The notes under the pieces are model-generated. The model was given only the letters and a program-made list of their open reading frames with translations. It searched no databases and was not told the DNA's origin. DNA of 64,000 nucleotides from Eledone cirrhosa. Its lineage: Eukaryota. Of the stretch, positions 7,439 through 61,535 are shown piece after piece. The position numbers and the translations under genes are program-made. The stretch is from assembly GCA_964016885.1 (NCBI GenBank), contig OZ024745.1, positions 98,518,001-98,582,000 on the forward strand, in the 5' to 3' direction. The stretch's first letter is position 1, and each line of letters begins with the position of its first letter.

Positions 7439-7493
7439 ACTGCCTGAGGAGGTCACAGCCAAAGATGGCTGTCACTGAAATATATATAGCAGT
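7439..7493 (+). ncRNA. Type I hammerhead ribozyme
   Basis: Stem I ACUGC/GCAGU; core CUGAGGA; stem II GGUCACAGCC/GGCUGUCACU; GAAA; palindromic stem III AUAUAUAU; AUA site; AATAAA at 7494. Confidence 0.8.
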
Positions 7494-7759
7494 AATAAAC
7501 GAAGCTAAATTTTAATCATTTGACTTTTTATTTAACTTTATTTTATATATAAATATATATATATTTAAAAGAATAGAGGTGTAACACACGAGTTATGATA
7601 TATTGGTAAAAAGAAAAGAAAATGCTGACAAATTGTTCCCAGTGAAAAATAGTTTAATTAGGAATAAGTAAAAATTAGTAATAAGTATTGGTTAGTATTC
7701 AGTTTTGGTTTTAAGTTTTTACCGGTTGCGCATTTCTAATGCTTTTCAAAAATAATTTT

Positions 7760-9275
7760 GAGATAGAGCGCCCGTGATGTTTGCTCTAAGGCCGAGCCTC
7801 AGGGAAACGCCAATGCGCAGGCTATGGTTGTCTAGCTGCGTGCCAGTGGAGACGGAGGGCAGGGCATGGAGCCAGGTACCACTGTGGGGTTTGGAGGCCG
7901 CACGAAAACAAGCAAAGCGGTGCTGGTCGAGCTGGTGCGTGAGCCTGTTTGAGGCCAGGCTGCACTGGATGGCATCCCAAGTGCGTTGGGTGGACTTGAC
8001 GTCTACAGGGGGAGAAGGAGGAGGGACGTCTACTAGGCTAAGTCCCAGTCGGTCTCACGTCTCACAGGCGGTCTCGCGTTCTCTGAACACAAAGGGTTCT
8101 GTTGTGTTTTGAAGAACCCTGCTGACGAGGACGCAGCACGAGGTTACCGACGAAAGATACGCCGGCAAAGCTAATGAGATCGGGGACCGGAGGCCAAGGC
8201 CGCCATACCTGACAAGTAAAGTGGCCTGTTGCCACCCTATCTCATCAAACTTGACGTTGAAATATCTCCTCGGCTGCTTCTCGGATACAAGTATCGAGGT
8301 CAGCGAGGAGAGATGTCTGGGTGTAGCACGGAGCGCGGTGGAGTGTATGGACGAGCTTCGGCATGGCGAAGCAGTTACTCGGCAGAAAGAGAGCTGGGTG
8401 GCCGTCAATCAAGCCCAGTCGGCTCGTGAGAGTCTGGAGCTGTTGAAGTCTGCACCTGATGGTGGAGCGGATGGTCGGGGGGGGGGGGGGGGTTGATCGG
8501 TGACCCGAGATGAGGACATCCTCTTTGGGGGTTACCTGAACCTGGCGGAGAATGGACCGCACGTCCAAGACGGAGGCTGCAAAGCTCTCAGCATCGAGGC
8601 TGACATTCACCACGTCCGACTTGGCCGAGTTGACCTGAAGGCCGATTCCCGCCAGGGCAGGAACCACCGATTGAAGGTCATGGCAGACCGTCCGTACGGG
8701 CCCGCCCAACATAGCATCATCCAGATACCAAACGTTGAGAGGGGCCGTGATACTCCGGGCGATGTGGTCAATACCAAGGGCGAACAGGAGGGGTCCCAAA
8801 GGATCGCCCTGTTGGACCCCAGTAGCCGAGAGTATGACCGTATCGGCAGCAAAGTAGGCCAACGGGTAGGAAGAGGGGGTTCGGCTGAGGCAGGCCTCGA
8901 GCAGATGATCCCGGCGTAAAGAGTTGAAGGCATTCCTCATGTCAAGCTTGACAGTGAGGTGCCTGGAGTCCCTGGATGCCGGTTCCGATGAGCAGCTATT
9001 GAAGAACTGCCTGGTTGCATGAGCGGCCCTCTCATAGCCACCGGACACGCCGATACCCAGTTGCACCGGACTAAACTCATTACCCAGTTCGTGTGTTACG
9101 GACCTGTAGATCACCTTGGCAGCCAGCCTCCGGAAGACATTGCCCAGAGCAATGGGTCGTATGCCACCCTCTTTCTTCCTGAGAGCGGTGAGGCTGGCCG
9201 AAAAAAAATAGGCCTCGGGCATAAGGGTCCAGGGCGCCATGGATGAGCCTATTGGTGAGCGCCACAATTGCACTC
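7760..9275 (-). mobile_element. CRE-clade non-LTR retrotransposon RT fragment (frameshifted)
   Basis: GGIRPIALGNVFRRL, LDMRNAFNSLRR, GVQQGDPLGPLLF, WYLDD, then WQQATL..YGGLGLRS and SGTWLHALP in other frames. Confidence 0.9.
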
Positions 9276-9354
9276 AGAAGGCGGCCAGGAACAAAAACAG
9301 AGAGGCAGTACAAAAAGTGGTTTATTAGGTTCAAATTTTGAGAGTGCGGGTGGG

Positions 9355-9386
9355 GAACGACGTTTCGGGCATAAGCCATCAGGAGA
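9355..9386 (-). ncRNA. Degenerate Penelope-type minimal hammerhead (core deletion)
   Basis: CTGATG-GCTTATGCCC-GAAACGTC, consistent with CTGATGAAGGGCTTATGCCCGAAACGTC lacking 4 nt; AATAAA ~30 nt downstream. Confidence 0.55.
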
Positions 9387-58163: not shown

Positions 58164-60290
58164 ATAACAAACCCTACAGGCAGAAATCTGGGACCGCTAT
58201 GGGAACGAAAACAGCCCCCACTTATGCCAACCTAGTCATGGGATACCTGGAAATCACCCTCTACACTAAAGTCCTAAACAAATTTGGAAACACCCTCCAC
58301 TTACACATTGAAAGGAACTGGAAGCGATATCTAGATGACTGCTTCATCCTTTGGCACGAAAACATCGAAAAAAAAAAAAAAAAAAAAAAAATATATATAT
58401 ATATAACAAACCCTACAGGCAGAAATCTGGGACCGCTATGGGAACGAAAACAGCCCCCACTTATGCCAACCTAGTCATGGGATACCTGGAAATCACCCTC
58501 TACACTAAAGTCCTAAACAAATTTGGAAACACCCTCCACTTACACATTGAAAGGAACTGGAAGCGATATCTAGATGACTGCTTCATCCTTTGGCACGAAA
58601 ACATCGAAAAACTTAAAGAATTTCACACCCTTATAAATGGGCTCAACACAAATATTAACTTCACGATGGAATACAGCCATCAACAACTCCCCTTCCTCGA
58701 CATCCTCATTAAGATCCATAACAAAAAAATAGAAACAGACATATACTACAAGCCCCCAGACTCCAAGCAATATCTCCCCTTCAACTCTTGCCACCCTAGA
58801 CACGTTAAAATTAATATTCCCTACAACTTAGCCAAGAGAATCTGTACTATAGTCTCCAATAAAAACATCTGCTACTTACGGCTACAAGAACTAAAGGACA
58901 CACTCATAGGCAGGGACTACCCTGCATCACTAATTGACAATGGAATCCAACGTGCCCTAAAACTCAGTACCCAGGACCTTAGACACCCTAAAGTAAATCA
59001 ACCAAAACTAAAAGCTCTTCCATACATCTCCACACACAACCCCTTCAACAATGAGGCCTTTGACACCATCCTCCAGAACATCCCTGTATTGAAAAAGGAC
59101 CATAGAATGAACCAAATTCTACGAACACATGATATCATAAAGAGCAAAAGACAATCCAAGTCAATGAAAAACATCTTAACACATGCCAAAGTACTGCCAA
59201 CCACAACAACGAAACCCACAGTAAAAAAATGTGATAGACCCAACTGTGGCATTTGCATCAACCTAATAGAGGGTTCTGAATTCTATTTCAAAGATGGACA
59301 ACGTTTTATAGTAAAACACAATTTCACATGTGCATCGGAAAATCTAATATATGTATTAACTTGTTCAGGTTGTCGAGAACAATACATAGGCCAGACCAAA
59401 AACAGCCTCCGCCAACGCATGACTGTCCATAGATCCCAAATCAAAATACGGGAATACAGAAAAATACCACTGAGTGAACACATTGATACCTGTGCCGCCC
59501 AAAATCATCCCAACTTCAGAATCTTTCCCCTCTACAAATTTAAAGATAATGCCACCCACACCCAGCGCATCAGCAAGGAATCTTACTTCATTAACAAATA
59601 CGGACCCCGTCTAAACACTTCTCCCTAAGACGAACCCACAACATACATACGTCAACATACATACCTACATCAGCACACATCTCTACCCACATATAAACAC
59701 AATGACACACGTAAACACACATGCTCAATGGTGCAATACAAAAAAATATATGTGCATATATATGTATGTATATATGTATATATATATATGTGTGTAGTGG
59801 ATATATGTGTGTATATATATATAGTGAATATCATTTCACACCTTTTATTGTTAAGATTTTTGATGTTCTATTAAGAGAACCGATTTTACTGAAAAAATCG
59901 AATAATGTACACCATTTTACCAGGGGGAAAAAAATACTGGTCCACCCCTACACACCCATTTATATTCGCCATATATATATATATATATATATATATATAT
60001 ATATTAAAATAACAGATTAAAGTTTAAGCAAAGAATGGCTGCTTTCACCCTTTCTTTGCTTAAACTTTAATCTGTTATTTTAATAAATATTTGCTCTACG
60101 GTTCATATATATTTGGTATATATTTATCCTTATCGAGCCCTCTTTGGAATTTAGTCTTCAAATTCATTATTACTATATATATATATACTATCTGGCAGAT
60201 GGGTAAACGGTGCTGATGATAGCTAACAAGCTTGAAACTAGTACATCGTTCCTGTGTCAGTGTTGAATAAAAAGGTGACGTGGTTGCCTT
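58164..60290 (+). mobile_element. Penelope-like element 2 (Naiad/Neptune-type), 5'-truncated, with pLTR
   Basis: Open ORF to 59628: GTAMG, RYLDD, LPFLD, SCHP, Cx4CxxC linker, LIY..CSGC..YIGQT GIY-YIG. Confidence 0.92.
60206..60250 (+). ncRNA. Minimal type I hammerhead in pLTR of Penelope element 2
   Basis: Stem I AACGGUG/CAUCGUU; CUGAUGA; AGC/GCU; GAAA; palindromic ACUAGU; GUA site; AATAAA at 60266. Confidence 0.88.
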
Positions 60291-60732
60291 AACACCGTAT
60301 GGCATAAATTCAGGCTGTTCAGTTTGTTGACAAACGAACAAAGCGGCGTTATAATAAGCGTCCGCTAAACTGATGCGTGCATATATATATGTGTACCTGT
60401 ATGTATATATATGTATATATATATATATATATATATATATATATATATATATATATATATATATATATATATATATATATATATATATATATATATGCAT
60501 GCTACTGTACGTCTGTATACATATATGTATGTACGTATACATACATACTTACATTTAAGTAAGTGCCATACTAAGAGTGAGAAATGAAATTTCGTTTTCA
60601 TTTTTTTCAACTTATATATATATATATATATATATATATATACATATATATACATATATATATATATATATATATATATATATATATATATATATATATA
60701 TATATATATATATATATATATATATATATATA

Positions 60733-60912
60733 TAATTGTTTCTACATTTGGCACGAGGCCATCAATTATCCAGTACATTACTGGTACTTTATTTTATCGA
60801 CCCCTTAAAGATGAAGAGGAAAGTTAACCTCGGCGGGATTTGAACTCAGACTGTAAAGGGACATAACTATGCTGCAAAGCATGGCGTCCGACCCTCTACC
60901 GATACTGCCAAA
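60733..60912 (-). mobile_element. SINE family A
   Basis: Full head/core/tail. Confidence 0.85.
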
Positions 60913-61499
60913 TGAGAGGATTTATGTATCGTAAGAGAGGAGAAGGGGGAGGAGGAGAGAGAGGGAGTGAGAGAGAGAGTGAGAGAGAGAGAGAGAGAGA
61001 GAGAGAGAGAGAGAGACGTGATACAGTATGCTAAATGCTGATAGCTAAAGCGAGGTGAGCAGTGTTAAATATTAAACAGGGGGTAATATTTAATGAAGGA
61101 GTAAAGCAGAGCAGGTATAAGCAAAATGAATAAATGAGGGAGTTGCAGTTCGTTTAAAACCAAATGTTGCTTCTTACATTATGTTTCAACTATACCACAG
61201 CAAGTAACGTTGTTTACGCACATGTAAGCTGTTACCGCCGTGGTATAGATTCCTTAGAGAAGATATAATTGTTAATACAGATGCCAATGGAAGTTGGTCT
61301 AACCAGCCAATCTGGTGTTGTGTGTGTGTGTGTGTGTGTGTGTGTGTGTGTGTGTGTGTGTGTGTGTGTGTGTGTGTGTGTGTGTGTGTGTGTGTGTGTG
61401 TGTGTGTGCGCGCGCTTGTGTGTAAAAAGTAAAGAAATCACAAAATAAATGACACAGTACAATGAAGAAATATTTTAGTTTAACGCTTAATATATAGGG

Positions 61500-61535
61500 T
61501 CCTTACGTTTTGGACACTAATCGTTCATCAGAAAA
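61500..61535 (-). ncRNA. Degenerate minimal hammerhead
   Basis: CUGAUGA..UCC-AAAACGUA; GAAA mutated, weak stems. Confidence 0.4.

Follow-up and report, generated by a model that had tools for sequence, protein, structure and literature searches.

The window analysed here is a 64,000-nt stretch of the Eledone cirrhosa genome (assembly GCA_964016885.1, contig OZ024745.1, positions 98,518,001 to 98,582,000). It carries hammerhead ribozyme motifs, very probably hammerhead folds of type I located at the 3' ends, or pseudo-long terminal repeats (pLTRs), of about ten families of Penelope-like elements (PLEs). Seven of these families have an open reading frame (ORF) for reverse transcriptase and GIY-YIG endonuclease (RT/GIY-YIG) in other copies, and the window motifs were likely left as short stubs by reverse transcription that stopped early. 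PLE pLTR hammerheads, many of them solo, are already known; the new part is a CAGA core, a long helix II and the density of the motifs.

Hammerheads were detected with a type I descriptor: helix I of at least 4 bp, CUGANGA, a helix II insert of 7-110 nt with at least three basal pairs, GAAA and UH. Palindromic, near-palindromic and hairpin helices III were accepted. Seven sites in the window had a perfect core with helices I-III and an open helix I: 7439+, 10567+, 26514-, 46370+, 53838-53957-, 56248+ and 60206+. In 949 local dinucleotide shuffles of the window, the kind of control proposed in a first-pass annotation of this DNA, the mean was 0.033 and the maximum 1. The presence of hammerhead motifs, a dozen of which that annotation had reported in 64 kb, was borne out. 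With one core mismatch permitted, the count rose to eight sites (53521+ added), against a shuffle mean of 0.74 and a maximum of 4. The window motifs were confirmed as genuinely hammerhead-shaped, and self-cleavage is predicted for the unusual versions with a CAGA core or a 90-nt helix II. The window copies at 9355, 10855, 55394 and 61500 were missed by the descriptor, and the core is intact in other copies of the 9355 and 10855 families. The 12 sites listed in the first pass fall into 10 repeat families, named below by the start of the window motif, and one motif (56949-56997+) had been overlooked. The features are as follows, with their basis in brackets.

7439..7493, + strand: type I hammerhead in the 3' stub of a Hydra-like PLE; helix III is palindromic (descriptor, family ORF link).
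9356..9385, - strand: lesioned (4-nt deletion) minimal ACGT-type hammerhead of a PLE family with a long 3' untranslated region (UTR) (family copies intact).
10567..10611, + strand: type I hammerhead with a near-palindromic helix III (AGAACT), stub of a high-copy PLE family (descriptor, ORF link).
10855..10894, - strand: lesioned hammerhead (AAAA for GAAA) within a head-to-head inverted pLTR pair (GAAA in 11/11 other loci).
26514..26584, - strand: type I hammerhead in the stub of a Hydra-like PLE, with a helix II insert of 36 nt and a palindromic helix III (descriptor, ORF link).
46370..46486, + strand: type I hammerhead whose helix II is a 90-nt rod, Hydra-like PLE (descriptor, folding, ORF link).
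53521..53597, + strand: type I hammerhead whose core is fixed as CAGAAGA and whose helix III is a hairpin (one-mismatch descriptor).
53798..56521, + strand: single 5'-truncated Hydra-clade PLE insertion with (TA)n at its end (sequence comparison).
53838..53957, - strand: inverted copy of the hammerhead with the 91-nt helix II (descriptor).
55393..55452, + strand: hammerhead-like motif without G12 (AAAA) that the 56248 family carries in its 3' UTR (family comparison).
56248..56367, + strand: type I hammerhead, intact, in a pLTR; helix II is a 36-bp rod of 91 nt and helix III is ACACGTGT (descriptor, folding).
56949..56997, + strand: damaged CAGAAGA hammerhead whose helix III is a hairpin; its family is an autonomous, Hydra-like PLE (family comparison).
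60206..60250, + strand: minimal type I hammerhead (ACTAGT) (descriptor).
61500..61535, - strand: minimal hammerhead of the ACGT type, decayed, from an old family at ~80% identity (family copies).

The first-pass description of helix III as usually palindromic held at 7439 (ATATATAT), 26514 (ATGCGCAT), 46370 (ACAATTGT) and 60206, but not at 10567, where AGAACT is non-palindromic, or at 53521, where helix III is a hairpin. The motif at 53521 was present as listed, but its core is CAGAAGA and not the canonical one. Among the sites called lesioned, 9355, 10855 and 61500 did fail the descriptor, whereas 56249 and its mirror at 53911 are intact, with GAAA lying 91 nt after CUGAUGA. AATAAA was seen directly 3' of all four motifs for which it had been noted (7439, 46370, 60206 and 9355), but in the 60206 family only the window copy has it, 7/7 other copies shown reading AACAAA. 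A role as a general poly(A) signal was therefore unsupported; the elements continue for 50-370 nt and finish in (TA)n.

The assignment to PLE pLTRs, already suggested in the first pass, stood: an RT/GIY-YIG ORF lies upstream of the pLTR on the same strand in other copies of 7/10 families, the remaining three being 53521, 60206 and 61500. In ORF-anchored loci (query locus included), the ORF was 1.14-1.19 kb upstream in 10/12 for the 7439 family and 1.1-1.4 kb upstream in 11/12 for the 26514 family. The 9355 family had same-strand PLE ORF matches upstream in half of the loci reaching the motif (9/18; 20 fetched). One of its links, through L141, was dropped because another family's hammerhead follows that ORF, and the link was remade from other loci. 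For the 10567 family, whose copies were drawn from other loci, the RT plus GIY-YIG ORF ended ~140 nt upstream in six loci (L167, L180, L079, L204, L236, L248) among 27 copies; this ORF has a CX4CxxC linker. The 10855 family was tied to an ORF in two loci, L265 and L169. The 46370 stub is 190 nt long (46345-46537) and flanked by (TA)n runs, and its family has the ORF 391 nt upstream in 7/24 copies examined (two being one place). Only some copies of the 61500 family have an intact core; its parent element was not found, and there was no ORF match in 32 loci (12 + 20).

Across family loci, copies truncated at the 5' end were found together with pLTRs in partial tandem and inverted 5' copies, all hallmarks of PLEs. 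The 7439 hammerhead itself has an inverted partial copy at ~7237-7306. As to the solo pLTRs suggested in the first pass, the copies in the window are 5'-truncated insertion stubs and not solo LTRs made by recombination. The absence of an adjacent PLE ORF, claimed for most motifs, was wrong for 53911, 55394 and 56249, which belong to one insertion around a truncated ORF (54214-55278).

Density was estimated from 79 evenly spaced 10-kb stretches (80 requested, one nonexistent) of the 3.0-Gb assembly, taken from large contigs only. The 790 kb contained 58 perfect-core motifs, or 73 per Mb (bootstrap 48-103), compared with 0.32 in shuffled controls. This extrapolates to ~2.2 × 10^5 hammerheads in the genome (1.4-3.1 × 10^5), approximately one intact-core motif per 14 kb. 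At this density, the probability of at least seven motifs in ~64 kb is 0.25. A local cluster in the window was thus rejected, and the rarity implied by the first-pass annotation did not hold. PLE hammerheads would fill the whole genome in the known arrangement, with an estimated 200,000 copies. Such a number would place hammerheads in many long transcripts of Eledone cirrhosa. In 219 loci plus the window, 308 motif hits fell into 42 rough sequence clusters, and ~40 clusters with unrelated stems retain the core and the pairing.

The insertion at 53798-56521 consists of an inverted 433-nt pLTR arm (53798-54230), an ORF remnant (54214-55278), a 3' UTR and a pLTR. Its family, 56248, is very young: 40/40 scored copies were 100% identical over 241 nt. 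At L031, tandem copies 3.6 kb apart enclose an open RT/GIY-YIG frame of 785 aa. The family has a common 3' end in 30/30 loci, followed by (TA)n or by the next ORF start; passage into (TA)n agrees with the insertion preference of the Hydra clade. Read by eye against the definition in PMC8557442, the L031 ORF carries the Hydra-clade marks RWK, DKT, a CxCX5C linker, CxxC and CxH. By these ORF motifs and the (TA)n flanks, the 56248 family is assigned to the Hydra-clade PLEs.

The motif at 55394, in the 3' UTR of this family, had been called lesioned. AAAA does replace GAAA, with its G12 general base, but it does so in every family copy shown, hence this is no private lesion. Its folding z score was 0.15, no better than shuffles. 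We give somewhat less than an even chance to its being a relic that predates an extension of the 3' end; alternatively, it may be a chance match.

The helix II inserts of the 56248 (91 nt) and 46370 (90 nt) hammerheads each fold into one rod, of 36 and 33 bp respectively, with folding z scores of -4.7 and -3.4. After removal of the basal 10 nt per side, these were still -3.8 and -2.1. The two are sister families, the 46370-family ORF being 56% identical to the L031 ORF. When they were compared in a core-anchored, gapless register, compensatory changes were found: both sides differed at 5/8 basal helix II pairs, at 3/4 helix I pairs and at the central helix III pair. The covariation proposed as a check was thus seen between sister families, but there was almost no variation within young families. 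Inserts of 79-97 nt occurred in 9/42 clusters, and inserts longer than 70 nt in 3/58 perfect-core motifs of the random sample. Eight other long inserts were folded, and only two had a z score below -2. The long helix II would be a tolerated, rod-like extension.

The 53521 and 56949 families are unrelated, and both combine a fixed CAGA core with a hairpin helix III. Core position 4, normally U, was A in both: with this position left free, A4 was present in 100/100 matches listed for the 53521 family (299 exact matches) and in 100/100 listed for the 56949 family (17,179 exact matches in the genome, control 0). The 56949 family has a Hydra-like ORF ~920 nt upstream in 14/45 copies, with one chance neighbour removed, and a further partial copy in the window at 60021-60050 (-). 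By cluster, A4 was found in 2/3 with a hairpin helix III and in 0/39 with a palindromic or near-palindromic one (Fisher P 0.0035), in a test where the clusters are not independent and in which a CUGA family with a hairpin helix III, a sister to 53521 at 70% identity, was not counted. Against this association stands a single-copy motif of the random sample (L246) that pairs A4 with a palindromic helix III. The loose pattern CAGANGA had low specificity (497,717 matches vs 294,274 in the control). Two small clusters had a U4C core: CCGAAGA (L077, L165; 4/4 copies) and CCGATGA (L169, L259), the latter also with an 82-nt helix II insert.

In type III hammerhead mutagenesis, mutants of the CUGA turn had low activity, save for a swap of the C3-G8 pair (PMC9901934). 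CAGA cores are for this reason slow or dead by default, and the two families are probably slow or inactive cutters. A bolder reading is the attenuation of a monomer-competent ribozyme. The CAGA core, fixed twice with a hairpin helix III, would then be an active but attenuated hammerhead, with the slowed core replacing the dimer requirement as a brake on self-cleavage. In a separate lineage, helix II would have grown into a rod of 30-36 bp that standard descriptors miss, and the genome, with ~2 × 10^5 PLE hammerheads, would be a natural library of the fold. We consider this combined reading rather unlikely.

The unit around the 53521 motif, truncated in the window (53438-53769), is ORF-less and ~500 nt long, and it forms head-to-tail dimers with a spacing of 490-512 nt (including 502 and 512 nt). 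Similarly, 60206 belongs to an ORF-less unit of 474 nt, also truncated in the window (60187-60612), for which a head-to-tail junction was present in 9/15 loci. Both units have inverted 5' copies in (TA)n. Like non-LTR retrozymes, they are tandem units, each with a type I hammerhead, and have no ORF as judged from limited flanks; they may thus be described as retrozyme-like. The non-autonomous, retrozyme-like set suggested in the first pass therefore applies to 2/10 families and not to the others, 7/10 having a PLE ORF. Apparent ORF links of the 53521 family via L065/L154, L056, L294 and L297 were dropped as neighbouring insertions. The 60206 motif was also rejected as the pLTR of the ORF at 58339-59628: the family copies have no likeness to the 3' region of that ORF, and the window copy starts at 60187.

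Several further observations concern these units. In helix I of the 53521 family, CCG/CGG alternates with CTG/CAG; CAG was found in 5/10 CTG copies and 0/16 others, which looks compensatory, in a comparison confounded by CpG decay and the deliberate choice of CTG loci. Relatives of the 53521 unit (L095 2516-2876, L180 4300-4700) have its 5' and 3' ends at ~70% identity, and one relative has a CUGA core. A 160-nt inverted repeat in the window (2221-2543) matches the 3' end of this group. L176 (6637-7693) holds a tandem trimer of a 528-nt hammerhead unit plus an inverted 5' piece, again retrozyme-like, and a fragment of that unit is in the window at 33340-33432.

Among the copies, 3' ends are shared and run into (TA)n, the extent of 5' truncation varies, inverted 5' copies and partial tandems occur, and a 785-aa Hydra-clade ORF is intact. 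PLE endonuclease nicks AT-rich DNA, and reverse transcription begins near the pLTR end (PMC11167929). In Eledone cirrhosa, the GIY-YIG endonuclease would nick (TA)n and prime reverse transcription, which would start at the 3' end and usually halt early, leaving short stubs. Because reverse transcription begins near the pLTR end, each insertion would retain the hammerhead and most would lose the ORF, which would explain the dozen 'ORF-less' motifs from many families. The ORF-less units of ~0.5 kb (53521, 60206) would be mobilised in trans by PLE proteins. In tandem read-through transcripts, hammerheads with a palindromic helix III would cleave after NUH as dimers and free unit-length RNA; a palindromic helix III predicts that tandem transcripts are cut as dimers and that activity in vitro is low (PMC4209133).

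Several points weigh against this account. Dimer folding energies favoured dimers in all six motifs tested, 53521 included, and so do not discriminate. With so little variation within young families, covariation rests on the between-family comparison. PAc hammerhead mutants were unimpaired in insertion in vitro, and the ribozyme was protein-dependent (PMC11167929). No ORF of their own was found for the 53521 family in 57 hits or the 60206 family in 42 hits (some loci counted twice, mostly 1.5-kb flanks). In addition, the PLE family of ORF 58339 showed no hammerhead core across its ~1.4-kb 3' region in the one longer copy checked, and is possibly a hammerhead-less PLE with a C-terminal endonuclease. 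This family, with RT plus GIY-YIG, is young (copies 97-99% identical; window 58339-59965 and L220 630-2100).

Other explanations differ widely in their likelihood. Chance matches in AT-rich repetitive DNA are hardly credible: seven motifs were found in the window and 58 in the 790 kb, far above the shuffled expectations, and every motif lies near the 3' end of a repeat family. An Rfam scan of the window did not name a hammerhead family among the 150 of 171 matches listed, the top ones being microsatellite matches to miRNA models, and chance may apply to 55394 alone, given its z score. That most motifs form a distinct set of non-autonomous ribozyme retroelements, or retrozymes, is improbable. 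The head-to-tail 53521 and 60206 units, the diverged sister families of the former and the 528-nt trimer of another family in L176 fit such a set, but contiguous PLE ORFs in other copies of 7/10 families, and of the 56949 family, refute it as the majority explanation. Non-LTR retrozymes have themselves been proposed to be PLE derivatives (10.64898/2026.07.22.740005).

A stronger alternative, plausible if less than evenly likely, is that most hammerheads merely ride along as passengers: genuine folds whose cleavage transposition can do without, the CAGA cores being dead mutations raised by successful master copies. The low activity of CUGA-turn mutants in the type III hammerhead, insertion by the PAc mutants in vitro, Naiads without hammerheads (PMC8557442), the G12-less motif fixed in the 56248 family and the single-copy CAGA motif with a palindromic helix III all point in this direction. 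On the other hand, ~40 clusters with unrelated stems keep the core and the pairing, A4 was fixed twice and with a hairpin helix III both times, and a natural U4C variant of a viroid hammerhead is functional in vivo (PMC3088659).

The remainder of the window is also rich in repeats. A Pif1-like helicase fragment at 11368-12405 (+; Pfam PF05970, PF21530) is probably Helitron-derived. Decayed non-LTR retrotransposon ORFs (RVT_1 and zf-RVT matches) lie at 8245-9273 (-), 13661-20370 (+) and 51349-52962 (-), and tandem arrays at 36887-37737 (44-nt period) and 44375-45392 (29-nt period). A ~180-nt repeat resembling a short interspersed element (SINE) has many copies on both strands (335-507, 6213-6951, 23507-24532, 28804-29430, 47003-49055, 60693-60883).

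An open-literature search, with most subscription papers outside its reach, returned no report of a PLE helix II of ~90 nt or inserts of 79-97 nt, of a natural CAGA core, or of a cephalopod hammerhead census. An annotation of octopus repeats lists 31 recently active Penelope-like families, with hammerheads unmentioned in its available text (PMC13282606). The core search in PMC8557442 used spacers of 7-17 nt; because published descriptors fix CUGANGA and short spacers, they would also overlook CAGA-core and long-helix-II variants in other genomes. Autonomous families that are very young, have an intact ORF and bear a CAGA core or a 91-nt helix II offer matched natural variants with which the role of PLE hammerheads can be tested directly.

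Heterogeneous, solo and opposite-strand-paired PLE hammerheads were described in 2014 (PMC4209133). The Eledone motifs share with them the type I topology, the short helix I, an unpaired or mismatched base at the foot of helix II and the palindromic helix III, as well as high heterogeneity within a genome, mostly solo occurrence and opposite-strand pairs 100-700 bp apart. Those hammerheads had a 7-8-bp helix II, a core variant with U3-A8 and copy numbers in the thousands for each genome; in Eledone cirrhosa, inserts reach 79-97 nt, U4A is fixed in two families and copies number ~2 × 10^5, in counts that are not strictly comparable since the descriptors differ. The far larger axolotl genome was reported to hold 126,247 hammerheads, also with a different descriptor (PMC7229834). 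Natural core variants with reduced activity (PMC3088659; PMC7151607) are likewise single changes (U4C, A6C, U3-A8), but U4A is unnamed in the text passages available, figures aside, and in Eledone cirrhosa a family that numbers at least 17,000 copies has A4 fixed.

Hydra-clade PLEs (PMC8557442) have the same C-terminal GIY-YIG domain, RWK, DKT, CxCX5C linker, CxxC and CxH, (TA)n targets, inverted 5'-truncated copies and 3' hammerhead, and one of them, Hydra-1_Obim, is an octopus element with a hammerhead (Craig et al. 2021, files S1/S2). They are generally under 3 kb, while the L031 unit measures 3.6 kb with a 3' region of ~1.2 kb. Their hammerheads have CUGA cores and helix II inserts of ~25 nt or less, in contrast to the inserts of 79-97 nt and the two CAGA families found here; the longest insert in the table of that paper, ~50 nt, is from a spike-moss element. 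Animal non-LTR retrozymes (PMC7229834; 10.64898/2026.07.22.740005) likewise consist of tandem units that lack an ORF and carry a single type I hammerhead apiece, and the Eledone units of 474-512 nt fall inside their reported range of 51-972 bp. Unlike them, the Eledone units were seen only as dimers and partial tandems with PLE-style inverted 5' copies in (TA)n, and 53521 has a CAGA core.

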